A stretch of 64,000 nucleotides of DNA. Origin: Eledone cirrhosa (Eukaryota). The position numbers and the translations under genes are program-made. A model generated the notes under the pieces. It did not search any database and was not told the origin of the DNA. It saw nothing but the letters and a program-made list of their open reading frames with translations. Every line of letters begins with the position of its first letter. Position 1 is the stretch's first letter. Below are positions 2,501 to 60,169 of this stretch, one piece after another. The stretch spans positions 100,440,001 to 100,504,000 of the forward strand of contig OZ024743.1 of assembly GCA_964016885.1 (NCBI GenBank). Reading direction: 5' to 3'.

Positions 2501-3189
2501 AACAGCCAGTGCTGGATTTACCATTGTGCTTAGGTGTGTTTACAGGGCCCTGTTGGCCAGGGAAGGGGGTATCTTCCTACCTCAAAAGATTTTTTTAATC
2601 TATTTTTTTTAATGTTTGAGGCCTCGTAAATTAAAGAGCACAGGGCCTCATTTGTGCTAAATACGGCGCTGAGAACAGCAACTTATATGTTCTTTACAAA
2701 CCTTTCATTCCCTTAGACTTAATTCCCCACCCATCCTGTCAGCCGGGACCCAGAGGTGGAGTGCAAGTTAGTTGGTGAAGGAGGATACTCGTTCGGACGT
2801 CACTTCTACAACTAAAATGTATTTACACTTATACAACTGTGAAACTCAAAGTTAAAACAGAAACAACACAGAACCTAAGTACACAGAACTGTGTTTGGAA
2901 ATATAGTGACAGCACTTAATAAAGATAGGTTGAGTATTTCAGGGAGAAGTGGGGTCAGATTCCTGGATTTAAATACCTTGCCTTTCACTTGAATGGTAAC
3001 ATCGTATTTTTGGTAAATTATTTCTAGATGTGTGTGTGTGTGTAAGCATTTGTACGTATATGTATGTATATGTATGCGAAGTGTAAAAGACAAAGAAATG
3101 ACTATTGACAAAGAAAAGGAGACAAACTGGTTCAAATATATGGATGGATGGGTTGTAGGTATGTAAGTAGACAGATATATATATATATA

Positions 3190-5109
3190 TATATATTTCT
3201 TTATTTGCCACAAGGGCGCACAAGAAAGAGGGACAATACAAAGACACATGCCGGGGATTTTACATACAGCCGTGTAAAAAATATAAAACAAACAATTATA
3301 ACAATCGAAATCCCCAATAGGGGGGAGCGCCACTAATGGGTTGTTTAATACCCCGTCGAATTTAGGAGCGTGTTGTGCAAGTGCTCCCTTCTTCCTTTTG
3401 CTCTCTTTAACCTACAGGCTTATAAACAGAGAAGGCCCAATCACTCGGCCCATTTTCGCTTCATTCACCCACCTTTCAGTAAATTTACTGGGGTGCAGTG
3501 CCTCTCTCTCCACTCTGATTCTCCTTCTAAAGTGATACTTAAAGAAGGGAATCAATTGTTGTCCGGAGAGAAAGGCATCTGACCTCAGTCCTCTCAATCT
3601 CGTCCACCATATAACTTCTTTCACCATAGCCACTGTACAGAGGAAAACCGCCTCTCTTTCGTTTTTGAAAGAAGTTGGCGGTTTGATCCTTACTATGGAC
3701 TCGGCAGTCAACTGGATTTGTCCCATATGCGACAGCAGTTGTTCCGCGCAGTTCCACAGGTCGGTTACGCCCGGGCAGTGTACAATTGCGTGCAGGACGG
3801 TTTCAATGTCCTGCGCGCATCTTGGACACGTCCTCTTGGAAGGATCCCTGCCGGGGCGTCCGTGCCTGTAGATCTTGTCACGAACTGGTAGAGCTCCTCG
3901 GTAGCACTGCCAGGCCAGGGACCTCTGGAAGTTGTCCATAGCACCCGGGCGGAAAGTCCTACCAAACAGTCTGGTGAGCTCATCGTCTTCGACGCTCAGA
4001 GTCTCTCCGAGCACGTCGTCGCCCTTGTAACGTACAATCCCTCTGTAGAATGTAGAATTAGAGTCTCCACTGATTGCTGTGCTCGCTTGCCAGAGGACTG
4101 TGAGCGCCTGAGTGCATTCAATGTGCCAGGCGTCCATCGTTTTCGGTCTTTTCTTGACCCAAGACTGCAGCTCCGTCAGCGAGCCGAGCTGCGGGAAAGC
4201 CTGTCTCACAAACGGTGCCCACGCCGGTTGGGGGTCGGTGAGGAATACCTGGAGATGCCGCAGCCTCAGCGCATGTTTGCGCATCATCAGCCACGGCATT
4301 CCCAACCCTCCGTTGGAAGGATGCTGACAGCAGACGAATCTCCTCACCAGCGGAGCCTGCTTCTTCCACAGACACTGGAAGAGCATGCGTTCCATCTTGG
4401 CGAGGTGTTCACGGGGACAAGGCACGACAGTCAAGCGGTAGTAGATGACGGACGCTATGAAAGTGTTCGCCACCTCCGCTCGACCTTTCAAGGACAGTTT
4501 GCACTCTGCCCACTTCTGGCTGAGCGCAAACACCTTGGCCGTGACCGCGTTCCAGTTTTTCTCCATCTGGGGTCTGGACCGAACCAGACCCCGAGCAATT
4601 TCACCGGTCCGTCCGTCCAGCGTCCAACGACGCTGTCGGACGTCATCGGTTTGCCTCTCCACGTACCGAGCTGCAAAGTGACAGACTTGTCCGGGTTTAG
4701 TTTTGCTCCCGTCAGCGTTTCTTATTCTTTCAGTAAGTTGCCGATCACCCCGATATCCGTGGTGCTCGACACCATTACCGTCACGTCGTCGGCATAAGCC
4801 GACGCCGCTTTGCGCAGTCCCTGTTCTAGAGAGATGCCCTGCAACAGCTCCAATTTCCGCAGTATTGGCTCTAGAGTCAATACATACAGAATGGTGAAGA
4901 GAGGGCGTCCCTGTCGAATGGAACGCGTGATTGCGAATGGCTCCGATGGGTGGCCGTTCACCTTGATCCTCGCGCAGATGCTGGTATGCATCGCCTCGAT
5001 CCAGCCTCTGAAAACGGGACCGAAACCGGCCGCCATAAGAACCGCTTCCAAGTATCGATGGTCGACCCTATCGAACGCATTTGACTGATCTAAGTTGATC
5101 AGAGCCATA
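3190..5109 (-). mobile_element. 5'-truncated Tx1/L1-type non-LTR retrotransposon (RT + zf-RVT), frameshifted
   Basis: LDQSNAFDRVDH, SIRQG.P, YADD, GGLG and CPRC..ET..H...C motifs in ORFs 4722-5171 and 3412-4662; 3' UTR ends AATAAAGAAA + (TA)n; GC-rich relative to flanks. Confidence 0.9.
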
Positions 5110-5110
5110 G

Positions 5111-5141
<31 letters not shown>

Positions 5142-5149
5142 GATAAATA

Positions 5150-5281
5150 GATATATTTCTTTATTAGCCACAGGGGCACAAAAGAAGGGGACAAATACAA
5201 AGGGGGAAGTTTACATACAATAAAAACGTGTAAAATGTTATCACAGATGGAATTTAAAAGTTAGTCGATTTTCCCCAATAG
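5150..5281 (-). mobile_element. 3'-end fragment of a related Tx1-type element
   Basis: Homologous to 3190-3320 (atatttctttatt.gccaca.ggg..caaa.gaagggac); tail merges into (TATC)n. Confidence 0.7.
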
Positions 5282-5441: not shown

Positions 5442-7018
5442 CATGACCCTAACGACACTACACACATGACCCTAACGACACTACATACATGACCCTAACG
5501 ACACTATACACATGACCCTAACGACACCATACACATGACCGTAACGACACCATACACATGACCCTAACGACACCATACACATGGCCGTAACGACACCATA
5601 CACATGACCCTAACGACACTACACACATGACCCTAACGACACCGCACACATGACCCTAACGACACTACACACATGACCCTAACGACACTACACACATGAC
5701 ACTAAAGAGACCATACACATAAACCCTAACGACACCATACACATGACCCTAACGACACTACACACATGACCCTAACGACACTACACACATGACCCTAACG
5801 ACACTACACACATGACCCTAACGACACTACACACATGACCCTAACGACACTACACACATGACCCTAACGACACTACACACATGACACTAACGACACTACA
5901 CACATGACCCTAACGACACTACACACATGACACTAAAGAGACCATACACATAAACCCTAACGACACCATACACATGACCCTAACGACACTACACACATGA
6001 CCCTAACGACACTACACACATGACCCTAACGACACCGCACACATGATCCTAACGACACTACACACATGACCCTAACGACACTACACACATGACCCTAACG
6101 ACACTACACACATGACACTAAAGAGACCATACACATAAACCCTAACGACACCATACACATGACCCTAACGACACTACACACATGACCCTAACGACACTAC
6201 ACACATGACCCTAACGACACTACACACATGACCCTAACGATACTACACACATAAACCCTAACGACACCATACACATGACCCTAACGACACTACACACATG
6301 ACCCTAACGACACTACACACATAACCCTAACGACACTACACACATGACCCTAACGACACTACACACATGACCCTAACGACACCGCACACATGATCCTAAC
6401 GACACTACACACATGACCCTAACGACACTACACACATGACCCTAACGACACTACACACATGACACTAAAGAGACCATACACATAAACCCTAACGACACCA
6501 TACACATGACCCTAACGACACTACACACATGACCCTAACGACACTACACACATGACACTAACGACACTACACACATGACCCTAACGACACTACACACATG
6601 ACACTAACGACACTACACACATGACCCTAACGACACTACACACATGACACTAAAGAGACCATACACATAAACCCTAACGACACCATACACATGACCCTAA
6701 CGACACTACACACATGACCCTAACGACACTACACACATGACACTAACGACACTACACACATGACACTAAAGAGACCATACACATAAACCCTAACGACACC
6801 ATACACATGACCCTAACGACACTACACACATGACCCTAACGACACGACACCGCACACATGACCCTAACGACACTACACACATGACCCTAATGACACTACA
6901 CACATAACCGTAACGGCACTACACACATAACCCTAACGGCACTACACACATGACCCTAACGACACTACACACATAACCGTAACGACACTACACGCATGAC
7001 CCTAACGAAACTACACAC
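5442..7018. repeat. 23-bp minisatellite containing CCCTAA
   Basis: Unit catgaccctaacgacactacaca, about 68 copies, with recurring variants. Confidence 0.95.
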
Positions 7019-7544
7019 AATATATATATATAGAGAGAGAGAGGGGGGGATATAATTAGATACATAGATAGATATGTATATTTGTATGTACGTACATACA
7101 TACAAAGAAGAAGAAGAAGAAGAAGAAAGGGCGATGATAAAACAGAAAAAAATGTCGAATGAAGCAGCAGTCTTTTGTAGAAATCAAAAGGAAGGCGTTC
7201 TCCAGCATCCACGAATATCCACGGAGATTGGATAAGAAACGAGAGAAATAAATTACTATTACCTCAACGGTGTCATCACCGCCATTTTGAATTGTATTTG
7301 TTGCACAGCGCAATTTATGTAGACGTTGTGAAGGAGACAGTGTCTTGGTGAAACGGTAGATGGAAAGGGTGAATTGAATTGAGTGATAGTATGAGTATGT
7401 ATGTAAGAAAAAAAGCCACCCATTACCTATTAATGTAACATGTGTGTCTGGTGCGTGGGGGGAGGGGATTGTAGTGAGTCTTCATATATATATATGTGTG
7501 TATATATATATATATATATACGTGTGTGTATATATATATATATA

Positions 7545-7732
7545 ACAAAGGAATTGTGGTAAGGAACCAGATGGACCATAACGCACCAGAGTACTCAATA
7601 CTTAGGGTAGTAGAGTGGGAAATAGGAAAAAGTATGACCCCGACGGCAGAGCTCAAGCCGTTTCGACGGCTATTTCAGTCCAGAAATAGCCGTCGAAACG
7701 GCTTGAGCTCTGCCGTCGGGGTCATACTTTTT

Positions 7733-13835: not shown

Positions 13836-14738
<903 letters not shown>

Positions 14739-14742
<4 letters not shown>

Positions 14743-15141
14743 ATTAAGTCAAATATTTAAAATTTGGCTTCGTTTGTTAAAGATGTACTGCTATATATAT
14801 TTTGGTGACATCTATCATTGGCTGTGACCTCTTCAGGCAGTCCGAATTGGTGTGGTAGAGACAGGTACACATGTTGTTGAAGTGTTTTACTCCGTCAATA
14901 CTCCGATATGTCCAGCTCCTGGTTGGGTTGTTATTTCTCTGAGGAACTGGAATCATATCTAGTATAGACGGAGTATATTGGAGTATTGACGGAGCAAAAC
15001 ACTTCAATAACATGTGTACCTGTCTCTACCACACCAATTCGGACTGCCTGAAGAGGTCACAGCCAATGATAGATGTCACCAAAATATATATAGCAGTACA
15101 TCTTTAACAAACGAAGCCAAATTTTAAATATTTGACTTAAT

Positions 15142-15145
<4 letters not shown>
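14739..15145. mobile_element. Penelope-like fold-back element, 171-bp arms
   Basis: Arms 14739-14909 / 14975-15145 with about 3 mismatches, 65-nt spacer, flanked on both sides by (TA)n. Confidence 0.7.
15043..15097 (+). ncRNA. Type I hammerhead ribozyme (GAAA mutated to AAAA; mirror copy on - strand in left arm)
   Basis: Helix I ACTGC/GCAGT; CTGAAGA 15048-54; helix II GGTcACA/TGTcACC; AAAA 15081-84; palindromic helix III ATATATAT; AUA cleavage triplet. Confidence 0.65.
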
Positions 15146-15182
<37 letters not shown>

Positions 15183-16809: not shown

Positions 16810-17430
16810 ATATTGATTTCTAATGTAAGCAGAGGGCCAGTAGTTTATGGGGAGGGGAAAATCTATTGCATCGACTTCAGTACTTGATTGGTACTTTATT
16901 TTATCGACACCGGAAGAATAAAAAAACAGTTCCCTCGGTGGAATTTGAACTCAGAACGTAAAGAGCCGGGACAAGTGCAGCAAAACATTTTGTCCGATGC
17001 TCTAATGGTTCTGCCAATCCACCATACTCCAAATCTCTTCCTGATATTCTAATCTCTTAGGGTGGTGGGTTAACAGATTCGTTAGGGCGGCGAATAAAAT
17101 GCTTTATGGCATTTAGTTACGATCCTTTATGTTCTGATTTTAAATCCCGCTACGTCCAACTTTGCCTTTCCCTCTATCAGGGTCGATAAAATATAATTGT
17201 TTCTACTTTTGGCACAAGGCCAGCAATTACCCAGTGCATCACCGGTACTTTATTTTATCGACCCCGTAAGGATGAAAGGCAAAGTTAACCTCGACGGGAT
17301 TTGAACTTCAGACCGTAAAGGTCCGTAACTCTGTGCTGCAAAGCATGGCGTCGAACCCTCTACCGTAAACATAATCGACTATATCCCTCCTCCTAAACAA
17401 TTGAGACCTTGTACCTATGTTAGAAATCAA
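16810..17430. mobile_element. Cluster of nested tRNA-derived SINEs (family A)
   Basis: Repeated GCCTTTCATCCTT..GGGGTCGATAAAATAAAGTACCAGT core and B-box GTTCAAATCC in both orientations. Confidence 0.8.
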
Positions 17431-18196: not shown

Positions 18197-18663
18197 TTAA
18201 GAGTGAGTCACTGAGCAATATGTATTTTTTTGTGGGGACCCGGGGCGGAGAACTGAAGGGCTGCCCCGGGCGGCACAGACTCCAGTTACGTCACTGACAT
18301 CGGAATGCCTTGCTAGTGTTTGAAGGATGTGGCATAAACGGTAGAATACAGGTCTAATTCTTTAGTTACATTCTTTTGTGTTCTGATTTCAAATACAGAT
18401 ATTTGTCTTCTATCTTCGTGGTATCGATTTTAGAAGTACTAAAAACAGACCTGCCAACCTCTAAAATCCCAAACGGGAAGAAATGAGGCAAAATGGGGAG
18501 ATTTACAAAATGAAGGCTATACCCATTTTCACAAGAGAAGACATCTCTCACCCACCCACTCTTATTTAGTGTGGAGCTTAGAGCTTCAGTTACAATTATG
18601 TTATGTCGGTAAAGATTGTATTATCATCCCATTGTTATTTTTTCACTTCAGATCTTGTAGAAG

Positions 18664-21600
18664 ATGAGGAACTCTGTACCAATATTTACCTCTATCTGCT
18701 GCTATTTCCTGTTCCTTCATGGTTGTCATAGCGAACATGTTCTTAGTAGGAATGCACGTGAGTTACCAGGTGGAACTGAACATGATTATTCACCAGGGAA
18801 ACTAGCCGCAAAAGAAGAGACCACTTCCCAAGTACCGCCATCGACAGCTGTCTCATCCAATTCAAATGTTTTAAGAAATACAAAGCGTACTTCATCCAGA
18901 GTATTCAACCAAGAAAATATAAGAAATAACAGAATGAATGATGGAAGACAAAACACAAGGTCAACTCCACAAACACGACGTTCCTCAACTGAAAATGTTT
19001 CTTCGAGAAGGAATAGTGATTCTAGTAGGATATTGCAGGAAGTTCGTTATGATAAATCAAACACAAGACGACAAACTGACAGCGCACGACGAAATTCCCA
19101 AACACGTGACGTTTCAGTAGTTTCAGTACTTTCTAGGTCAAGAAGATCTAGATCCGTTGAAGGCACCAGTAGAACTCAAGAAACCCGTAGAGAAATATCA
19201 AATGGAAGACAAGTAGATCACGTACGCCGAAATTCACTGAGACTTGACAATTCTGTAGTTACCAGCACACGAAGATCTAGAAGTGTTGATTCTGGCCGGA
19301 AAATACGAGAAATCCGTAGAGAAGTATCAGATACCAGACGACATATGGACGACACTAACCGAAATTCACTGGCAGTAGTTTCAAGAAGACAGAGTTCTAG
19401 ATCTATTGATTCTAGAAGGAGAACACAGGATACTGGTAAACGAAATACCGACAACACTCGCAGAAATTCCTTTACACGCGAATCCTCAATAGATTCTCGA
19501 ATTCAAAGGTCGAATTCTGTTCATGCTACCAGAACTAGAATACAAGAAAATCGCAAAGAAATATCTAATGGAAGACGAGAAATGGACAACACTCGTAGAA
19601 ATAATCTTAGGCGAGACTCTTCAGTAGTTTCTAGAACTGGAAGGTCCAGGTCAGAAGATGCCACAAGAAGAATGAGGGAAATTAATAAAGATGTATCAAA
19701 TACAAGACGGGAAATGGACAGCACTCGCCGCCACATTCTTACACGGGATACCCAGGATGTCATTAAAAACCAAAGGTCCAGATCTTTAGACTCTGGCATC
19801 CCAAATACAAGACGACAAATCGTTGATGCTCGCAGAATTTCCCAGACCCGTGATGCGTCAGTAATTTCTAGAACACGAAGTTTAAGATCAGTTGACTCAA
19901 ATAGGAGAGTTCAAGATACTCGAGATGTCGTTAGAAACCAAAGGTCCAGATCTTTAGACTCCAGCAGAAGGACACAAGATGTTCGTAGAGAGATCCCAAA
20001 TACAAGACAACAACTAGATGACGTTCGCCGAATTTCCCAGACCCGTGATGCTTCAGTGCTTTCCAGAATACGAAGTTCAAGGTCGATTGATTCCAGTAGG
20101 AGAGTTCAAGATACTCGTACAGAGATATTAAGTACTAAACGACAAAGAGATAATACACGCAGAAATTCACTAACACGCGATTCTTTAGTAGATTCTAGAA
20201 CTCAAAGGTCAAGGTCTGTTGATTCTGCCAGAAGAGTGCAGGAATTTACTCCTCGAGTTTCGAATACAAGACGACAGACGGACAACGCTCGCCGAAATTC
20301 TATGACACACGATTCTTCAGTATATTCCCGAACACGAAGATCTAGTACTGTTGAATTCAGCAGAAGACGAGACGTTAGCCAAGAAAGATTAAATACAAAG
20401 CGACGAGTAGACGAATCTAACCGAAATTCAATGACTCGTAACACTCCTTTAGTTTCTAGATCTGAAAGGTCTAGATGCGTTGATTCCAACAGAAGATCAA
20501 GGGAAATTGTTAATGAAATATCAAAAACAAGACGCCAGATAGATAATATTCGCAGAAACATTCTTACACGTGATATCTCAGATGTTTCTAGATCTCGAAG
20601 GACCAAATCACTTGATTCCAGCAGAACACAGGATCTTCGCACAGACATGTCAAATACGATGCGACAGATAAGCAACTATAGAAGACATGCTGTAACACGT
20701 GATACTTCAGTTTCTAGGGCTCAAATGTCCAGATCCATTGATTCCAGCCGAAGAATACAAAATACTCACAGAGAAATATCAAACACAAGACGAGAAGTAG
20801 ATAACACACGCAAAGAACCTTCCAATACAAGGCGTGTAATAGATTCCGCACGGCGAAATTTAGCTGTTCGTGATAAAAAAGAATATATGTCTCGTTCAAG
20901 TGATTCTGAAAGAATGAGGCACAGTATTCGCCAAAATGTACACTATCGTAAATCTCGAATGGATTATGAAAACCAGAGACCCATTTCAATTGATTCTCAC
21001 GTGAAATTAGGTCGAGCAAGATTAACTCGGGGTGTTCGCGACGGACTAACTAATACAAGGCGACAAGTAGACAGCAGTCGTCAAATGGCATTGCTTGGTG
21101 AATCTAGAGATGTTTCAAGAAACCAGAGATCTAGATCTGTTGATTTCAACAGAAAATCAAGACAAGTAAGAATAACGTCTGATAATGGAGACAGTACGTC
21201 ACACACCAGACGACATGTAGATGATATAGATCGACATCCAATGGCACGTAGGTCTATTGAATCTAACATAAGGGCGATTCGTAAGGAAATGTCCAATAGC
21301 AGGCGTCGGGTAGATGATACTCGTCGAAATAGCGTGATTCATGAATCCCGTGGTGTTTATAGAAGACAAACATTCAGATCCGCTGATTCTGATACCAAGT
21401 TAAATCAAGTAAAAATGACACGGAACGCTCACGAAAACTTTGCTAATATCGCGCATCAAGTGAGAAGAACCAGTCAAAACGATTTGGCTGACGTCTCCCA
21501 AAAAGCTTATAGAAACCATAGATCTATATCTAAGTCGCGTCAACAAATTCGCGAGAAAAGATCAGAGACTCGCCGTCAGATAGATACACCACATCAACAT

Positions 21601-22247
21601 TCAATTAGAAAAGTTTCATTACTAGGCTCGGAAAATCAGCAAACCAGGTTTGTTGATTCAAACCAAAGGTTGCAGACATCACACACTCGTCGTCAAGTTG
21701 CTAATACTCGCCAAAATGCTATACCTCATAAATCTAGAACTCGACAATTCCAGCGCTCAAGAGTGACTATCAGAATTGCAAAAATAGTTGATGAAGAGCC
21801 TTTAAATAAACAAGAAATTAAAATATTTGAAAGCCTGAAACAATCTTTAGTTTCAGATATATCTTTCTTCTTGTCAAGAAACTTTGGAGCTATTGTCGTT
21901 ATAAATCTGGAAAATAAACCATCATTTGTAACGCAGTCTTCAAACAACACTCTATTCGACTTGACGTTGCCTTCATTAACTCCATCGAACCAAACAGTTG
22001 GATGGAACAGTAAGATATCGCTAGAAGGCCCGGAGAAGAGTATTCATTTGGCAGATAACGAATATACTCGACTAACATTTCCATCACCTTCCATTCTTTC
22101 TAGTCACAGTATGACACAAAAATATAATGATAATGGCGTCAACGACGAAGTATTATCGCCAATGGGAAAAATAAATGCTTTATCAAAAGACATTGTTACA
22201 TCGTCATCAAACAATATGCAGCAATATATACCACAAGAACACGCGAG
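18664..22247 (+). CDS. Novel secreted Arg/Ser-rich tandem-repeat protein, coding exon 1 (gene model join 18664-22247, 24229-24295, 25863-25951, 27593-27725; ~1290 aa)
   Basis: 3.6-kb uninterrupted ORF in AT-rich DNA; acceptor tttttcacttcag just 5' of ATG; signal-peptide-like MRNSVPIFTSICCYFLFLHGCHS; ~44-aa repeats; phase-2 donor AG|gtttgt at 22247. Confidence 0.88.
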
Positions 22248-22716
22248 GTTTGTAAACTTAAATCTTATTTCTCTTTCTATGAAATTCATAGTTTAAAGAC
22301 GGAAAAAACAATAATGAAATTAGTTTTAACATATTTAATGTAAGGGACATTAGGAAGCCAACAAAAAATATTTATATGGTGAAGAAAAAACTATATTAAT
22401 CAATGACTAATATCATTTTTATATTTTCGGCAAATACGGGAGACAATTCTGGACATATTTCGATATTATTCTGATTATATAACTTTCATTATACTTACCG
22501 AAGTGTTGATGAAAAAGAATCACTCAGTAAAGATTGTGCACTGGTTGGTGTAAGGAAATAGTATTGTTTAGAAAATATATTTAGCGATGTCATCAACATA
22601 GACAAAACAATAGAGATGTCAGTATTAGTATGTTTAAACAATAGATATGTCAGTATTAGTATATTTATTGCAAGGAATATATAAAAATACTATTTAAAAT
22701 ATTTATGTGGTGAGAA

Positions 22717-22776
<60 letters not shown>

Positions 22777-22779
<3 letters not shown>

Positions 22780-23007
22780 AAAGAATGTGTGGTAAGGAAG
22801 CAGGTGGACCATAACACACCTGAATATTCTATACTTAGAGTAGTAGAGTGGGTAATAGGAAAAGAGTCAGGACCCCGATGGCTGAGCTCCGGCCGTTTCG
22901 ACAGCTAGATCCGAACTAACTCGACAGATTGCCGGGTTAGTTCGGATCTAGCTGTCGAAACGGCCGGAGCTCAGCCGTCGGGGTCCTGACTCTTTTCCTA
23001 TTATATA

Positions 23008-23045
<38 letters not shown>

Positions 23046-23105
23046 CATATAGGAAAAGGTTTAACCCCGACGGCAGAGCTCAAGCCGTTTCGATGGCTAT
23101 TTCTG

Positions 23106-23109
<4 letters not shown>
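22777..23109. mobile_element. Penelope-like fold-back (22853-23003) plus second terminal fragment (23049-23109)
   Basis: ~74-bp arms; GAAA-cggc..gccGTC-ggggtcc at 22957-22986; same family as 7545-7737; in (TA)n. Confidence 0.6.
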
Positions 23110-23169
<60 letters not shown>

Positions 23170-23284
23170 TAATAAAAGGAATTCCAACTTTGTCTGATTT
23201 ACTCGTTTTATTTACAATCCTTTAAAATTTATAATGGTATTAGAATGAAATAGTATGGTAGAATATTAAATGTTAAGTGTTAAT

Positions 23285-23323
23285 TGAACAAGTACTTTCA
23301 TGCTTTCGCAATCTTCCGGTTCA
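23285..23323 (-). ncRNA. Compact type I hammerhead ribozyme (core CGGAAGA here; intact CTGAAGA in mirror arm 23592-23598)
   Basis: Minus: TGAAC-CGGAAGA-tTGC-GAAA-GCAt-GAAA-GTACT-T-GTTCA; helix I TGAAC/GTTCA, GNRA-capped helix II, palindromic helix III AGTACT. Confidence 0.65.
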
Positions 23324-23395
23324 TATTATGTGGTGACAGTCAAGTTTGCAATTTTCAACTGTTGAAAATTGCAAACTTGACTGTCACCACATAAT

Positions 23396-23576
23396 TGTTT
23401 CTACTTTTGGCACAAGGCCAGTAATTACCCAGTGTATTACTGGTACTTTATTTTATCGACCCCGTAAGGATGAAAGGCAAAGTTAACCTCGGCGGGATTT
23501 GAACTCAGAATGGCAAGGGCCGTAACTCTATACGTCAAAGCATTGGGTCCGACCCTCTACCGATACTGCCAATTCA
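23396..23576 (-). mobile_element. Young tRNA-SINE (family A) inserted in a palindrome arm
   Basis: Highly similar to 34717-34900, 60324-60514, 61603-61788; TSD (tca)ccacataat. Confidence 0.85.
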
Positions 23577-23652
23577 CCACATAATATGAACCTGAAGATT
23601 GCGAAATATTAATATAATCTTCTATACACAATCATACACACCCGTGTATATT

Positions 23653-23686
<34 letters not shown>

Positions 23687-23695
23687 CGTGTGCGT

Positions 23696-23731
<36 letters not shown>

Positions 23732-24228
23732 AAAAGGTAAACAAAAATAACAACACGATCGGTATATGTTGGCTATGAATCGAAGTTGCAGCCGCCATAT
23801 AGCAGGTAATAAATAAGAAGCAATTGTTTTCCAAGATGTACGGGAGACAACTCCCAAATTTAAGCTACTTTCCAGAAAATCATCGCATTAGAAATCCCAT
23901 ATTTATGAACGTACACTATACAATTACCCACCCCATCCCTGTTATTTGAGACCCCAGAGTACATACAGTATCCACCTTTTGGTTTCATTCAACTTAAAAA
24001 TAGTAGCCATATCTCCCGTATAAAATATTGTATTTCCTTTTTTAAAAAATCAAATGACGTTCGTAATTACTATTGTACTCTATTGTATTCTAGTTTCTGT
24101 ACTTTACGATTAAATTTATTGCCTTAATATGAAGAACCACCAGAAAGTTCTGGAATAATGAGTCTTGTTCAAAAACACAATATATTGTACGTTATTGGTT
24201 CTTTAAAATCATTATGTTCTGTTTTCAG

Positions 24229-24295
24229 TGAAATTCTTTCCACGACAGAAGCTGATACTAACCTATTTGATATAGCCAGCATTGCAGCATTAAAG
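24229..24295 (+). CDS. Novel Arg/Ser-rich protein, coding exon 2
   Basis: ttctgttttcag acceptor, AAG|gtaaat donor; phase 2 to 0 fits; EILSTTEADTNLFDIASIAALK. Confidence 0.65.
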
Positions 24296-25280
24296 GTAAA
24301 TACTATTAGTTTTTCTACTAAGACAACAAAGCCAGTTTGTGTGGAAGGGAGATAGATACTTGTATCAACACCAGTATATTACTGGTGTTTATTTTATGAA
24401 TCTTGGGACAATGAACAATAAAATTGATCCTGATGAGATTTGAACTTGAACCTGAAAAATGAAACTAAGTACTATATTGTCTCAGCTACAAAATATAAAG
24501 TATTGAGTTGTTTTTTAATATTGTTTTATACCAAGTCAGCTCTGATCAAACAGACCTATGATCAAAGGGTTCCAGCCATGACCACCCCATGTTATTTCCA
24601 GACAAAGTATCCAGAACTACATTATTTAATGTACACTTACTTTTGTTTATGATGGCAAGGTGTACTCTGAGGGGATTTTGGCTGCTATTTCTAGCAGGCA
24701 AAACGACTACTTACATGTTCCCTCATTTTCTCATGACTCATATGAGTTACAACATCTACACCTTTTCTTTTTATTACTCACCACACTCCTATGCTAGAGC
24801 AACTTATCAGAGTTTCTATGTGTAAAAACAAACATTCTCAATTTTCAGTAAGTGAAACAACTAATATTTTCAAAAATAAACAACATATACAAACCCCACC
24901 GCCAACACATGTTTCTTTCCCCCTAACTTTCTTAGTAACGAAGATATTTTAATAGAATTTTGCAGAGAAATATTTCCCATGACACAGACAATGATTATGT
25001 TAATAAAATATTTTTTTAATTAATTTTTTTTAAATACTTCCATTATTGTATACCATTCTGTTCGTAAATACTTCCATTTACTGAATTCTTGTTCTTTCTA
25101 GTTTCTCTCCAAGTGTCCAACACAAAATATGGATTCCTCATATCTTCCCTAAAATGGCAGTTTCAGCTGTTTGATTCTACCCCAACTACTGCTCATCTCA
25201 GGTCGGTGATCAACTCAGTTCCAATCAATGGACAATCACCGAACTGAAGGCCTTCAACACCAAATTCAACGAATTTGACA

Positions 25281-25560
25281 TGTATTTTATCATGGCACCA
25301 GTACTACCACTTTACAGGGTGTACTGGGTGTATTTTATCATGGCACCAGCACTATCACTTTACAGAGTGTACTGGGTGTATTTTATCATGACACCAGCAC
25401 TACCACTTTACAGAGTGTACTGGGTGTATTTTATCATGACACCAACACTACCACTTTACAGAGTGTACTAGGTGTATTTTATCATGACACCACACTACCA
25501 CTTTACAGGGTGTACTGGGTGTATTTTATCATGACACCAGCACTTACATCTAACAGAGTA
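25281..25560. repeat. 48-bp minisatellite
   Basis: Unit tgtattttatcatgacaccagcactaccactttacagagtgtactggg, about 6 copies. Confidence 0.9.
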
Positions 25561-25680
25561 GACATGGTATCTTTTATTGAAATCCCAGCACTAACTCTTT
25601 ACTGAATTTAGCAATAAATTTTTATACTTCAGTAAACTTATAATCTTTAAACATTTCTTTTATTATTGTTGTTGTTGTTA

Positions 25681-25832
25681 GGGCAGTGGATTGCCAGTAT
25701 CTGAGTTCAAATCCCTTTGCCTTTCATCCTTGCGGGTCAATAAAATAAAGTACCAGTCATGCACTGGGGTCAATTTAATCGACTTTCCCCTCCCCCAAAA
25801 TTGCTGGCCTTGTGCCTAAATAAGAAATCATT
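25681..25832 (+). mobile_element. tRNA-SINE family A (internally deleted)
   Basis: Head gggcagtggattg, B-box gagttcaaatccc, core gcctttcatcct; tail abuts the exon 3 acceptor. Confidence 0.75.
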
Positions 25833-25862
25833 ATTATTGTTGTTGTTGTTATTTATCATCAG

Positions 25863-25951
25863 ACTCCGTCACTTCCAAAATCTGAAGAATCATCAAATGA
25901 TGAAACTCTTGGAAAATATTTCTTAGAAATCTTGGGAAATATGACAAACAG
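25863..25951 (+). CDS. Novel Arg/Ser-rich protein, coding exon 3
   Basis: ttatcatcag acceptor, AG|gtatgt donor; phase 0 to 2; TPSLPKSEESSNDETLGKYFLEILGNMTN. Confidence 0.65.
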
Positions 25952-27169
25952 GTATGTATAGTTTCTACACATATTTTAACTAATACCAAAGTAGTTGGTG
26001 ATAGAAATGGAAGGTTGTCAGACTAAATCTCTTTTTTGCTGAGGAGGCATTAGTGGGAAAGATTTTTCCTTCAAGGTTGAGAAATTTACTAGTAATATAA
26101 TTGTTTTTACAGCTCACACTTGCATAGATTTAGCCTCCTTTCAGATTGTATCTAACAGGTTTCTTAGGTGTTTTAAAAATATGTGCCCCAACCCTATTAT
26201 GTCAACATTTTTCTAGTGACAGGAAGCAAGATATCCAGTTTAATGCTCTATTACCCAATTCACCACCCTATGTGTTTGGTATTTTATCAACCCCAAATTG
26301 GTGAAAAGAAAATACTGACTTGAGCAGTACCAGCTCAGGGTTGGCAGATTGGCAGAACTGTAAGATCATTAGAGGTAATGTTTTGCAGTGATTGTGCAGA
26401 CTCTCTAAGTTTGAGCAGCAAATTAGCAGTCATTAGAATATCAAATAAAGTGCTTTGTGGCATTCTTTCAAGCTCTTTGCATTCTGAGTTCAAATCCTGC
26501 CAAGATCAAATTTGTCTTTTGACCTTTTGAGTTCAATAAAGTATTGGGATCGATTTTTCTTCTATATCTCTTTTTCACTTCCTCTTCTTCTCTGTAAGAA
26601 ACTGGCTGTGTTCACAGCTGAGAGGAGAGGCTTCAGCAGGATTTACAGGTTCATACATACTATGTTCTAAGTACCCAGGTTTGTGTAGTTAGATTTTCTG
26701 TATCTGACTAATAGGGTGTCAATTAAACAAACACCCAAAGGAAAGCAGTGGGAAACCACCATTGTATTTCCAATGGAAATTTCAAGAAAATCCCAAAGTA
26801 TTTATCAATATTGTCATGTAGAATCATCCTTTGGTCTGATGTATCAAAGATTGAAGAAGAGGCAGCTACAGGGTGGTAGAATGGAGGGCAATAGACTATT
26901 TAGGTGTGTTACTTTCAAATCACACTGTCATCAACTTTGTCTTTCATTCTTCCAGAACAAAACACTACCAGTCATACACTAGGGAAAAATTAACTTTTTT
27001 GATACCAAATATCATTTCTTTTATTGCACTTGTTGATACCAAATCATCCCAGATTTTATATAAAACTTTGTTTTAAAGTGTTTATATTTACCTAGAAAAC
27101 ATTGGTCATATGTTTATGTAATAAGTTTATTCTCAAAACACCAGCTTAATAATGAAAAAATTAAGTATA

Positions 27170-27469
27170 CAGTGTAACCCCAGCATTCGCAGTCCCGGTT
27201 ATTCGCAGAATTTTCCTTAGAACCTAACTAATAATTGTTGATGGAAACTACCACATATTCGCAGAATCATAAATATCTTTTTTAATGACATTTTTCCTGG
27301 CAATATATATTTTTTCATGCTTTTTAACACTAAATTATTAATAACAATATACCGTATGTTTTGACGTTTATAGGCATTTTTATGGACCACATCCAATATT
27401 CGCAGTTTCTCACTCTTCACATTCTAGGAATGTAACCTCCGCAAGTACTGGGGGGGGGGGGGGCAACTG
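27170..27469. mobile_element. Tc1/mariner (pogo/Tigger-like) MITE
   Basis: TA|CAGT...ACTG|TA termini with imperfect TIRs. Confidence 0.6.
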
Positions 27470-27592
27470 TATTACTAAATCCCACCAAATTTTTCATTAT
27501 TTTAAAAATGATTTGAAAAATGACAGGCAGTATCTTTCATTTGATGACAGTGATGGTAGTCATGGTGATGATAGTTATTTCTTTATTCATAG

Positions 27593-27725
27593 CTTCAAGT
27601 GGCGTAGAGAGATGCCTAGAACCATTTTGATCAGCCTGATGGCCTTTATAGGAATAAGAAGCAGCAAAGACACCAACAAACCAATTAACAGACAACTGAT
27701 TCCAATTATGCCATCAATCTTCTGA
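27593..27725 (+). CDS. Novel Arg/Ser-rich protein, last coding exon
   Basis: tttctttattcatag acceptor, phase 2 fits; FKWRREMPRTILISLMAFIGIRSSKDTNKPINRQLIPIMPSIF*; AATAAA candidates near 28530-28556. Confidence 0.6.
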
Positions 27726-27973
27726 AAGATGTATTGGTTTACAAATCACCTGAATTGAAGAATACTGAGACCAACTGACTTTGGCACCAAATGAAATTGA
27801 AATTTTACTTGATAATCTACCACCTTAGATGAGCTGCTTTTCGCAATCAAATATCTAAAACTGGCTATCTTTATTCTTTAATCAATGCTTTAAACTACTT
27901 TGTAGTGTTAACATCTGACAATGGTATGACACCTATATATCTAGAGAGGGACTCTTGGAGCAGGACTACATAG

Positions 27974-28789: not shown

Positions 28790-29130
28790 ATCATCATCAC
28801 TGTTTTACTTCCATTTTTCCATGCTAGCATGGGTTAGACGAGTTGTCCTGTTGTGCTGTCAACTGACCATGTCTTGTTCATACAGAACTGATTTGGGCCT
28901 GGTTTCTACAGCTGGATGTCCTTCTTAACACCAACCACATTTACAGTGTGGACTGGGCGCTTTTTGTTGTGATACCTACACGACCACTTTACAGTGTGGA
29001 CTGGGTGCTTTTTGTCGTGACACTTATATGACCAATTTACAGTGTGGACTGGGTGCTTTTTGTCGTGACACTTACATGACCAATTTACAGTGTGGGCTGG
29101 ACATTTTTTACAGTGTCACCATCACGACCA
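28790..29130 (-). mobile_element. SINE family B (V-domain-like, RTE tail) with internal tandem repeats
   Basis: TTTCTACAGCTGGATG.CCTTC.TAACACCAACC motif and (CAT)n tail, as in 53462 and 59515 copies. Confidence 0.7.
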
Positions 29131-29149
29131 CTGTACAGAGCAATACAAA

Positions 29150-40251: not shown

Positions 40252-40830
40252 CTCTAAACGATACTTAAAAACATTTTAGATAACAAAATATTGTTGTTGT
40301 TTTTTTTGTGCTATCAACTAATCTAATCTCCAAGATGCTGGCAATCAACTTTTTCCCTGGTGAACAGAAGGGGTGAGGTGCTTACAATAGACTTTTTTCA
40401 GGGTTAGGGTTAGAGTTACCGTTTTCCGGGATAAAGGTCGATTGTAAGCATCTAAGAGGTCCCAAAACAAAACAAGGAAAGATAATTATTTCCCACCAAA
40501 CGTGAGAGGTGTGAAGATCTGAGAAACTCGGTCTTTTCACTCCCTTTCATTCTACTTTTTCTAGATCTAATCGTTTCCACTGGTTGGGAGATCATATTCG
40601 TTGATAACACGCGATAGAGAAAACTCCGGGGAGGCGGGGAACACTCAACCCTTCCGTTCTCCGGGAAAAAAGTTGATAGCACAAGAGGAAAAAAAAAACA
40701 AAAACGAGGAAAACATTTTTTGTCACTAAAATCAAGAGAGGTGTTCTATAAATCTACCTTCAAAATATTACGCCTCAACAATAGCCTTCAGAAAAACGAG
40801 TAAGAGAGAACCTGTGGAGGAAATACTTAC

Positions 40831-41604
40831 CGGCATGAGAGGCATTTCTGTGCGGATTTGTGAAGATATGAATTTTGTGTTAAAACGACTGTACATTTTA
40901 TGCAAAAACTGATCCTCCTTTTTTAGCTCTGAAATCCAGGCCTCTCTAGGGATACCATAACGGTCCCAGAATGCTTTAACTCGAACATCTTCAGCAAACT
41001 GGCTAGATAATAGGTGAGGGATCTCTGGTGCCAACACCGAGAGCAAGCAATTGATAATTTGTTCAGTTTTAAGAAATGTCACTTTTTTCATATTGTATGT
41101 CTTGTATTTAAGAAGTGTTCTGTCTATGTGACAATTTTCTAATAAAATACTTCTTTCGACTAACGGCTTTATACGCTCCAAATAAGCCATCGCCTTTTCT
41201 TCTAGCTGGTCGTAAACTTCGGGCATTCCGGGAGCCATGTGGGTCTTCGTCACATATTGTTGATATTTGAAAGACCTGGGATAATTCTGAACTGGTGGAC
41301 ATATCCAAGTATTTTCTGGATCTGGTGATAACATTTTGAAACGCTTTTTTAAATTCAAATTTGTATCTTTTAACAAGTTTGATTGTTCCCAGATTGACCA
41401 GCATCGCTTTTCCTTCATGTTTCCCCATGATCCTGGTGGCCACCTAGGTTTTACAGGTGGATATTGGACTTCTTCTTCAGCAACTTCTTCCGAAGCATTT
41501 AGTGGTACAACACTGCTAACATAACGATTATTTGAACGGAGAAAAGAGGAGAGTATATAGCAAGATCTACACGACCTCGAAATTCTGAACGTATGAACCG
41601 CCAT
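40831..41604 (-). CDS. MRPS30: MRPS30 exon 1 (gene join 41604-40831, 37672-37561, 36003-35836, 33341-32983; 470 aa)
   Basis: ATG in aaaATGG context; Arg/Ser-rich mitochondrial presequence; YPP, YQQYVTKTH, AFW, QIRT..PL motifs; CCG|gtaagt donor. Confidence 0.9.
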
Positions 41605-42779
41605 TTTGACATTGAAATAAAATATTTCAAGGCCCGTAACTCTCAAAGACTTTTAAACAACTGTTTTGTTTATTTCTTTTTACATATGTCAAGCACCGAC
41701 AAATAAATACCTGGAGATATTTTGTTCTGCGTGTTGAGGTAAATTTACTCCCTAATATTTCCGATATCTAAAACAGCTTAAAATATAGTCACGACCAACA
41801 TCAAAAATCATCTGGATGCTTATAAAATTATCAATGCATGTCAACAAAGTTTTAGAGCGCCTCGTACCAGCGAATACTAACTAACGATAGTATAAGACTT
41901 GAGAGAAAAGAGAGACAAAACATTGCCCTAGACATTATAGTACTAGATTTCCCAAAACATCGCTATAGATATTATAGTACTTTGACCACGCTATCCTTTA
42001 GTAAACTAATACATATGTAAACACGACTGATTGAACACGAAACCCTTGAATTGATAGGGCGCAATAATGAACTTTAAAGGATCAGTTTTAAACAAATTTA
42101 TATAGTTAAATTAAATATATCATAATTTCCTATGTTTAATAAAGAAATCACTAAGCATCTTTCCTCCTAGCAGTGGAGTGGGTTTTATGGTATTGCGATT
42201 TGTCACACGATTTGGTGTAGGTGATAGTGATCTGTGTAGGGGAAAATGCAGGCTTAGTAGAATTCTCAGTGTAGTCAGAACAAAAAATATCAAAAACTAG
42301 ATTCGTCAGTTTATCAAACTGTAAGTTGAAATTATTTTATTTGGTAGAAGGAGAAACATATTGTGGAACTAGCCGAACTACCCAGTTGCTGGATCTGAAT
42401 ATATAGCAAATAAAATGTAATGCCATTAAATGTGTAGTGGTGGCAATTGGTCAGTGAGAACATGACTACCCATAACTGAATAATATGCATCAGACAGAGT
42501 TAACAAATTTAAATATCTTGGTGTTACCATTACTCATGACCTAAGATTTTACTTACACATTACCTTAACAATAAAGGTTTATACATGCTGATAAGATCTC
42601 TCAGAAAAATCCCAACCAAAACCAAGAGTCTTTGCAAACCCATCATGGAATATTCTAGCCATGTATGAATGCCATATAAAAAGAAAAACATCAACAAATA
42701 TAAAATAAAAAAAACTTTCAGGTGGACACATCTCATACCTAGAACACACTAGTGATAGAATAGTGACTGAAGGATACAA

Positions 42780-59995: not shown

Positions 59996-60169
59996 CTCTG
60001 GATGGAAGAAAATTTCTGGTCCAAGAAATCGTTCATAACCAACATCTACACTGAAAGGACTCTTGTTTATGCTGTTTAAACCATCAAATTTTTTTATCCA
60101 CTTCGTAGGATCTTGATCATACTTGTTGAATTCTTTAGCTATATCGGGACAGACGTAGCAAAATCGCTC
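59996..60169 (-). CDS. ACTR3: ACTR3 exon (174 nt)
   Basis: [58 protein letters not shown]; tag / gtaagg. Confidence 0.96.

Follow-up and report, generated by a model that had tools for sequence, protein, structure and literature searches.

A spliced Eledone cirrhosa gene for a probably secreted arginine/serine repeat protein shared with Argonauta hians

The window analysed here is a stretch of 64,000 nucleotides from Eledone cirrhosa (contig OZ024743.1, positions 100,440,001 to 100,504,000), within which a four-exon gene model of 3873 nt, with one stop, encodes a protein of 1290 amino acids (Table 1). Its three introns measure 1981, 1567 and 1641 nt, are bounded by GT and AG in all three cases, and have phases 2, 0 and 2. 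Only one frame is open through coding exon 1, each of the other five being interrupted by 34-123 stops. A pyrimidine-rich acceptor precedes this big exon, with its AG at 18650-18651, and an in-frame TAG lies at 18658-18660; an additional exon upstream is likely.

Table 1. Features of the locus, in positions of the window
Feature	Position	Strand	Basis or remark
Predicted 5' non-coding start of the big exon	18652..18663	+	sequence; outside the X4 contig pieces listed
Coding exon 1, residues 1-1194 plus 2 nt, phase 2 end	18664..22247	+	ORF, X4 pieces, Argonauta alignment
Predicted signal peptide, residues 1-23	18664..18732	+	hydropathy by eye, Argonauta conservation
Near-invariant N-terminal cap, residues 24-47	18733..18804	+	23/24 identical in Argonauta; net charge -1
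Arg/Ser/Thr/Asp/Asn array, degenerate ~44-aa repeats, about 19 units	19048..21768	+	repeat, composition and column analyses
9-nt tandem duplication, in-frame 3-residue length variant	19111..19119	+	in assembly; absent from X1 and X4 contigs
Non-repetitive tail within exon 1	21769..22247	+	Argonauta alignment
Coding exon 2, 67 nt	24229..24295	+	70-letter gap in X4 contig 12; Argonauta tail match
Coding exon 3, 89 nt	25863..25951	+	X4 contig 12; alignment
Coding exon 4 with stop, conserved C-terminal cap	27593..27725	+	X4 contig 12; Argonauta alignment
3' UTR, to the limit of the X4 contig	27726..27963	+	X4 contig; contig end adjoins a genomic A-run, true end may differ

Contig 12 of X4 matches the window in pieces at 20159-22245 (record 1-2087), 25864-25949 (2158-2243) and 27591-27963 (2244-2616), whose joins agree with the exon joins of the model, and the 70 letters between the first two listed pieces resolve as 2+67+1, exactly exon 2 and its flanks. 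Because this contig is spliced we infer that X4 is RNA; the X1 contig, by comparison, runs continuously from exon 1 into intron 1 (18531-22708). Over exon 1, X4 supplies four pieces, leaving 19569-19604 uncovered and with none listed for 18664-18704, and therefore no single contig joins the start to the tail. Exons 2 and 3 together match the tail of the Argonauta protein with a score equalled or bettered in 0.001 of 2000 shuffles. An unspliced read-through ending at 22296 was rejected, as it scores 14 against that tail and the RNA contig is spliced. The gene is real and spliced, and the spliced contig and GT-AG introns bear out the original prediction of a four-exon Arg/Ser repeat protein with phases 2-0, 0-2 and 2-stop. 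It is single-copy and common to Argonauta hians; searches of its own genome, and of 100 kb on either side of the window, returned no paralogue.

Word searches and a full HMMER scan of the databases searched yielded a sole homologue, the uncharacterised 1129-aa A. hians protein GAB1606502.1 (pairwise E 5e-114), auto-named 'serine/arginine repetitive matrix protein 2-like', a name that appears to reflect composition alone. The two proteins share the start Met, signal segment, N-terminal cap, ~44-aa repeat and C-terminal cap, and the best window match is colinear for 8 of the 15 Argonauta units; they differ in that the Argonauta array has about 15 units rather than 19, more decayed, and in that tail residues 1101-1194 barely align. 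Judged on this alignment, GAB1606502.1 is the orthologue, and the gene is not the orphan it was first taken to be, while its description as lineage-specific holds, with one homologue only from the word searches and HMMER scan. Neither of these searches found an orthologue in the genus Octopus. The HMMER scan, over 1.84 billion representatives, returned only the self-hit and no SRRM2; Pfam placed no family above its cut-off for either protein (CdaS_N, E 0.017, and DUF2970, E 0.21, fall below it). The gene is not a transposon ORF. Neither the window protein nor the Argonauta tail had a usable match in ESM Atlas, a PDB sequence search gave a single match at the level of chance (E 0.5), a literature search found nothing on the window protein, and a label search of supplements found nothing in PMC9635652 (1 file) or PMC8976471 (5 files). 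Our verdict is a new octopod-restricted family inside a known broad class.

The whole protein is 17.7% Arg and 15% Ser, with a pI of 11.6 and a net charge of +124 (+106 in Argonauta). Its repeats are regular over residues 129-703 and decayed onward to 1035, with recurring NTRR, RRNS and SRSVD motifs and a hydrophobic spot about every 7 residues. The original prediction described about 950 residues rich in R, S, T, D and N with few aromatics or Cys, and this is upheld over residues 133-1035, which contain 25.1% R+K, 11.8% D+E, 23.8% S+T and 2.5% P+G, and have only 15 aromatics (7 of them Tyr) and 1 Cys. The balance of 25% R+K with 12% acidic residues holds over these 903 residues and over 816 in Argonauta, and in both species the charges are mixed more evenly than in shuffles (z -3.4 and -2.6). 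Its charges being evenly mixed, the array is a polyampholyte with a net positive charge: the predicted highly cationic character stands as a net charge of +120, but not as that of a pure polycation. Tryptic peptides of 8-35 aa cover 20% of the array, against 51% and 92% of the tail segments. Among 12 core units (66 pairs pooled) pN is 0.335 and pS 0.575, giving an omega of about 0.41 from protein-guided alignments near saturation; the repeat units are under purifying selection. Fold prediction yielded no confident fold: it gave a pLDDT of 34.9 for the Argonauta protein, whose model shows weak helices, three of them C-terminal and the rest spanning part of each repeat, and a pLDDT of 50.6 (pTM 0.11) for two repeat units, from alignments of 2 and 8 rows respectively, at which depth low pLDDT is weak evidence of disorder. 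The repeat protein is likely disordered.

Conservation is concentrated at the N-terminus, where 43 of the first 47 residues are identical in the independently annotated orthologue, compared with about 45% in the repeats. The signal segment, 20 of whose 23 residues are identical and whose start Met is common to both species, has a hydrophobic core at residues 7-18 with a charge of +2 before it and 0 after; by eye, cleavage is likely after Ser23. Each species has Cys at 12, 13 and 21 plus one more. In the cap that follows, an RxxR site has residue 32 as its last position, and an acidic Gly/Pro stretch containing Asp-Tyr42 comes after it. Judged from their motifs, these are a candidate furin site and a candidate tyrosine sulfation site, making trimming at RxxR and sulfation of Tyr42 possible.

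Passage through the ER is independently supported, because N-x-S/T sequons are strongly depleted in both proteins: residues 24-1035 of the window protein contain 1 where 17.6 are expected, and residues 24-910 of the Argonauta protein 2 where 12.8 are expected. Shuffling within repeat columns still leaves 2 against 8.3 +/- 2.2 expected (0.001 of 5000 shuffles), figures that are optimistic in that the repeat units are related, while D-x-S/T, S/T-x-N and N-x-x-S/T lie at expectation in the column shuffles. Four sequons remain per protein in both species. Sequon avoidance is purposeless outside the ER. With the conserved signal-like segment, this depletion in both species suggests that the protein is likely secreted, as was first proposed. 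Two further patterns were considered and set aside. Apparent avoidance of furin sites is present in plain shuffles and vanishes in column shuffles. Fam20C phosphorylation was rejected, as S-x-E sites are not enriched in either protein (4 vs 5.4 expected in the window protein, 3 vs 7.4 in Argonauta) and the conserved motif is mostly S-x-D, while Fam20C strictly needs Glu (PMC12650399).

The same segment and sequon avoidance weigh against the intracellular function that the NCBI label implies, that of an SR-type or protamine-like nucleic-acid-binding protein, which would account for the high Arg and Ser. RRxS/T, a PKA motif, does occur 16 times in the window protein against 10.6 expected (z 1.8), but it is not enriched in Argonauta (8 vs 7.7), no RS/SR run is longer than 4 residues in either protein, and the absence of any Pfam family above cut-off or of SRRM2 from the HMMER scan tells against it too. 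We consider such a function very improbable, in keeping with the original view that this is not a nuclear SR protein.

Among the secretory alternatives, the protein could be a precursor from which cleavage at RR pairs releases short cationic defensive peptides, antimicrobial or antifouling, or the carrier of one conserved N-terminal peptide (residues 33-46) freed at RxxR. There are 55 RR pairs, the near-invariance of the cap is common among bioactive peptides, and cationic cuttlefish egg-case proteins are antimicrobial, according to the portion of the work on them drawn on here (PMC4500399). RR nevertheless occurs at about its composition level (52 vs 46.0 expected), dibasic pairs fall slightly below column shuffles (85 vs 93.1), KR is found only 5 times, and Gly-dibasic signals for amidation occur 3 times in the window protein and are absent from Argonauta. 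The units, moreover, are mostly 40-60% alike, and their 44-residue register is kept across the cut sites. Multi-copy neuropeptide and antimicrobial precursors differ from this, as their near-identical peptides sit between enriched dibasic sites and often carry a Gly amidation donor. The suggestion of a peptide precursor, part of the original prediction, is weakened by these counts and now seems doubtful.

Beyond the array, identity to Argonauta is 41% over residues 1036-1100 and 20% over 1101-1194, and then 25 of 44 in the C-terminal cap, where a hydrophobic stretch of 12-13 residues from residue 1257 is kept in both species. This stretch could instead indicate a cell-associated protein of the secretory pathway, either a cationic matrix for packing anionic cargo, whether in granules or in the acrosome, or a stalk on the surface anchored by the stretch with the acidic Tyr cap as its recognition tip. 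The order of signal peptide, RxxR, acidic Tyr motif, long repeat, hydrophobic stretch and short tail is consistent with this, the evidence for the ER fits it equally well, and the middle diverges fast, as fits reproductive or surface proteins. Yet the stretch is short for a membrane span, its best 19-residue sums on an insertion scale (+9.9 and +7.5) are worse than that of the signal peptide, and basic residues flank it on both sides; its distance of 20 residues from the end excludes a GPI signal. We regard cell association as rather unlikely.

Anatomy is best fitted by an extracellular material, and we place moderate confidence in a secreted, disordered, net-positive repeat protein, capped by conserved ends, which forms a cement, coat or cuticle matrix by condensing with sulfated glycans or acidic proteins. 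In such a material the chain would enter the ER and lose its signal peptide, and a furin-type enzyme may trim it at residue 32, so exposing the invariant acidic cap to act as a tag for sorting or for binding a partner. The ~900-residue array would stay unfolded and largely without N-glycans, presenting about 200 guanidinium groups with its regularly spaced hydrophobic spots; once released it could bind polyanions via complex coacervation, and assembly would be nucleated or cross-linked by the conserved helical C-terminal cap. Octopod egg cement is one candidate setting; the part of an account used here presents it as a protein secretion cured by sulfonated polysaccharide (PMC8976471, citing Froesch and Marthy 1975). 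The protein of the cement is described as a mucoprotein carrying heavy O-glycosylation, which the Pro-poor, Arg-rich window chain does not resemble. Conserved caps flanking a repetitive core count in favour of a material; against it count the lack of the usual cross-linking chemistry and the RR pairs, which leave the chain very open to convertases, and the absence of a match from the genus Octopus would be odd for a core octopod cement protein. A role specific to the argonaut eggcase is unlikely. Of the 33 A. hians entries in the eggcase lists, 31 have known domains.

A more specific version, which we offer only tentatively and think improbable, makes this protein the first of a family of polycations built in blocks and restricted to octopods, forming the protein half of an octopod two-component glue such as egg cement: an invariant, possibly sulfotyrosine-bearing N-terminal cap, about 20 Arg/Ser/Asp repeats kept N-glycan-free by selection, and a self-associating helical C-terminal cap, cured with sulfated polysaccharide. 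If true, it would be a wet adhesive working by arginine-sulfate coacervation rather than by DOPA, disulfides or His-metal links, and one overlooked because trypsin shreds the protein and databases name it a splicing protein. Should it instead be an ordinary protein of a gland or gamete coat, it would add one more to the lineage-specific repeat proteins. In either case there is now a confirmed gene, with an orthologue, for an undescribed and likely secreted cephalopod protein; the misleading label 'SRRM2-like' is corrected, the old histological account of octopod cement becomes open to direct test, and sequon avoidance can flag secretion among low-complexity proteins. Suckerins, beak His-rich proteins and reflectins are cephalopod material proteins, and the arginine-rich polyampholyte chemistry seen here, nearly devoid of Gly, Pro, Tyr, Cys and His, sets the protein apart from all of these and from the cuttlefish SepECPs.

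SRRM2 and SR proteins are likewise Arg/Ser-rich, large and probably disordered, but the window protein has no RS dipeptide tracts (RS 33 vs 31.0 expected), no RRM or cwf21 match, no homology to them, and a predicted signal peptide. Spidroins and fibroins have conserved non-repetitive ends around a long repeat core, with a hydrophobic helix in the C-terminal cap; the window protein shares this block layout without homology, its core being charged and not Gly/Ala-rich. Mlig-ap1 of Macrostomum lignano, on the description used here, provides a precedent, being a cohesive protein that is secreted, is rich in Lys/Arg, binds sugars of negative charge and is poorly seen by tryptic proteomics (PMC6410801), and the likeness would lie in being a large secreted protein with long basic regions. 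We found no homology between the two, and the window protein is without C-type lectin, vWD and Cys-rich domains; its Arg is far above its Lys (8.9:1) and it has 12% acidic residues, whereas the KR regions of Mlig-ap1 are given a pI above 14. SepECP1/2 of Sepia officinalis (PMC4500399) are similarly cephalopod, secreted and cationic with a strongly conserved N-terminus, but in the portion of that report cited they have 50-55 Cys spread over three Cys-rich domains, N-glycosylation and no repeats, while the window protein has 1 Cys after the signal, is sequon-poor and is built of repeats. Finally, although its Arg/Ser/Asp chemistry, very low Gly, Pro, Tyr and His and lack of a family match set it apart from the molluscan secreted RLCD proteins, as far as these are characterised in the part of the source relied on (bioRxiv 2021.07.10.451900), it resembles them in its signal peptide (here predicted), its low-complexity repeats and its narrow taxonomic range, that is, one homologue within the sequence collections searched.

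The studied gene is real and transcribed, and it is under purifying selection. Its four coding exons translate into a 1290-aa product (the window protein) ending at a single stop, GT-AG borders flank all 3 introns, and the long exon has one open frame, the remaining five carrying 34-123 stops each. A 2651-nt contig from run X4, which we infer to be RNA, was placed on 20159-22245, 25864-25949 and 27591-27963. Junction 3 is seen directly in this contig, and junctions 1 and 2 are supported because the 70 letters separating the first two placed pieces equal exon 2 plus flanks exactly, so the spliced model with fitting joins originally predicted is borne out by the junction check it called for. Run X1, from the same study, continues unspliced into intron 1. 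The contigs listed leave the first 41 coding bases and a hole at 19569-19604 uncovered, and a 9-nt duplication at 19111 of the assembly is missing from both X1 and X4, an in-frame variant. An in-frame TAG lies 6 nt upstream of the ATG, a position inside the exon should splicing use the 18650-18651 acceptor; a weaker predicted acceptor at 18659-18660 is a possible alternative start of the first exon. The gene is single-copy in own-genome searches, with no paralogue within 100 kb on either side of the window.

Features in and around the window (window coordinates except L015, a DNA record beyond it)
Feature	Position	Strand	Details
LINE-type element, broken	2875-5210	-	551-aa frame matches zf-RVT, E 8e-6
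Satellite	5442-7019		23-nt, 68 copies
Inverted repeat, MITE-like	14705-15179		3.5 kb upstream of studied gene; 205-nt arms (partly TA microsatellite), 98% complementary; 65-nt spacer
Very high-copy short repeat	17209-17360; 23391-23580		Two copies: upstream; intron 1
Studied gene, coding exons	18664-22247; 24229-24295; 25863-25951; 27593-27725	+	
Near-perfect palindrome	22853-23003		Intron 1; 74-nt arms, 96% complementary; 3-nt spacer; TA microsatellite flanks; similar letters near 7530-7730 and 23030-23110
Minisatellites	25281-25544; 28934-29138		48-nt, units related
Mitochondrial ribosomal protein S30/PDCD9, large exon	40768-41652	-	Pfam PF07147, E 8e-12; convergent with studied gene
Actin-related protein 3 exon	59996-60169	-	PDB match, E 1e-26
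LTR retrotransposon-like fragments	L015 4402-7633	-	gag, protease, RT, integrase; several broken frames (by eye)

Among the repeats, the palindrome is likely a hairpin-type element, and the short repeat, whose read placement shows cross-joints and a very high summed depth, is likely a SINE. A fuller relative of the LINE-type element lies just upstream of the window (record L018).

The gene had been taken for an orphan, a claim that no longer stands: with residues 130-760 as query, the single match among 7982 candidates scored was its orthologue, Argonauta hians GAB1606502.1 (1129 aa), a gene model from an automatic pipeline according to the accessible text of PMC12682272. The orthologue suggests an octopod source for the window. 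Shorter proteins gave 0/7994 matches to residues 130-760, and residues 1-50 against proteins of 89-2000 aa returned the orthologue alone (1 of 7 candidates). When all 1.84 billion representatives were scanned by HMMER, the Argonauta protein recovered no sequence but its own, although relatives clustered beneath it would stay hidden; Pfam, PDB and the ESM Atlas yielded nothing. The pair makes up an undescribed two-member family, and the window protein is likely secreted; no paper on the window protein was found in a literature search outside which most subscription journals lie.

Conservation is concentrated at the ends. Identity is 20/23 over residues 1-23, 23/24 over 24-47 (the N-cap) and 25/44 over 1247-1290 (the C-cap), against ~45% of aligned positions in the repeats and 20% over 1101-1194. 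Cleavable signals have a hydrophobic core with positive charge ahead of it, and residues 1-23 (core 7-18, charge +2 before, 0 after) form a putative one, as expected. In the N-cap, residue 32 closes an RxxR site and Tyr42 sits in an acidic stretch; a hydrophobic stretch of 12-13 residues, short for a membrane span, is conserved in the C-cap.

Between the caps runs an array of period 44; the window protein gave 22 unit matches by iterated HMM and the Argonauta protein 18 (34 units aligned after dropping 3 partial matches per protein). Most of it is older than the split, since best matches are colinear for 8/15 Argonauta units. Across 12 core units (66 pairs), pN (0.335) is below pS (0.575), giving omega ~0.41 in a protein-guided comparison near saturation. 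Residues 133-1035 have net charge +120, Arg:Lys 8.9, 11.8% acidic residues and 2.5% Pro+Gly. Both species mix charges more evenly than shuffled sequences do and place a hydrophobic residue every 7.2-7.5 positions; no fold was predicted confidently by AlphaFold.

An array that is 7% Asn and 24% Ser+Thr should contain many N-x-S/T sequons, yet the window protein has 1 (17.6 expected) and the Argonauta protein 2 (12.8 expected). Because repeats alone can create such gaps, we shuffled within aligned columns: 2 sequons were seen against 8.3 +/- 2.2 expected, with 0.001 of 5000 shuffles as low, an optimistic figure given that the units are related. Three control patterns were at expectation, and of the 9 patterns tested only dibasic pairs were also low (85 vs 93.1, 0.028); the tails show no sequon depletion. 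Sequon avoidance would make sense solely for a chain passing the ER and, together with the conserved signal segment, argues that the window protein very probably enters the secretory pathway. The predicted secretion of an Arg/Ser-rich protein is thus likely, whereas a nuclear SR or protamine-like protein is highly improbable: the longest RS run is 4, and the database searches gave neither a domain nor homology. The clear hit to a nuclear SR-type protein named as a refutation did not materialize.

Our best reading, by analogy and at roughly even chances, is an exported, disordered, net-positive chain whose array would condense with polyanions into cohesive material after export, while sorting and assembly would fall to the conserved caps. 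This reading is modelled on Mlig-ap1, a Macrostomum lignano adhesive protein whose K/R regions, in the accessible text of PMC6410801, bind negatively charged sugars and which yielded few tryptic peptides; basic regions are shared, as is poor tryptic coverage, predicted for the window protein from sequence (20% of the array falls within tryptic peptides of 8-35 residues). A candidate setting is octopod egg cement, which PMC8976471, citing Froesch and Marthy 1975, presents as a secreted protein hardened with a sulfonated polysaccharide. Against this reading, an octopod egg cement protein is described, in a partial source, as heavily O-glycosylated, usual cross-linking residues are scarce, and our searches found no orthologue in the genus Octopus. 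Its boldest form, an arginine-sulfate octopod glue, is doubtful. A granule, acrosome or surface matrix, which would accommodate the hydrophobic stretch near the C-terminus as well as the evidence for ER passage, is a similarly slim prospect. A peptide or defence precursor, kept alive by the invariant N-cap, is equally unlikely, as RR pairs are numerous but not enriched and amidation signals number 3 in the window protein and 0 in Argonauta. Fam20C phosphorylation is unsupported, S-x-E showing no enrichment and the kinase requiring Glu (PMC12650399, in the part available).

On the features tested, the window protein belongs neither with SRRM2 and SR proteins, nor with multi-copy peptide precursors or Mlig-ap1, nor with the Sepia officinalis egg case proteins as the available text of PMC4500399 presents them. 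For the argonaut eggcase proteome, 31/33 A. hians entries have known domains in the portion of the preprint available (bioRxiv 2021.07.10.451900). The window protein does carry the sequence features of a broader class, the molluscan secreted low-complexity repeat proteins.
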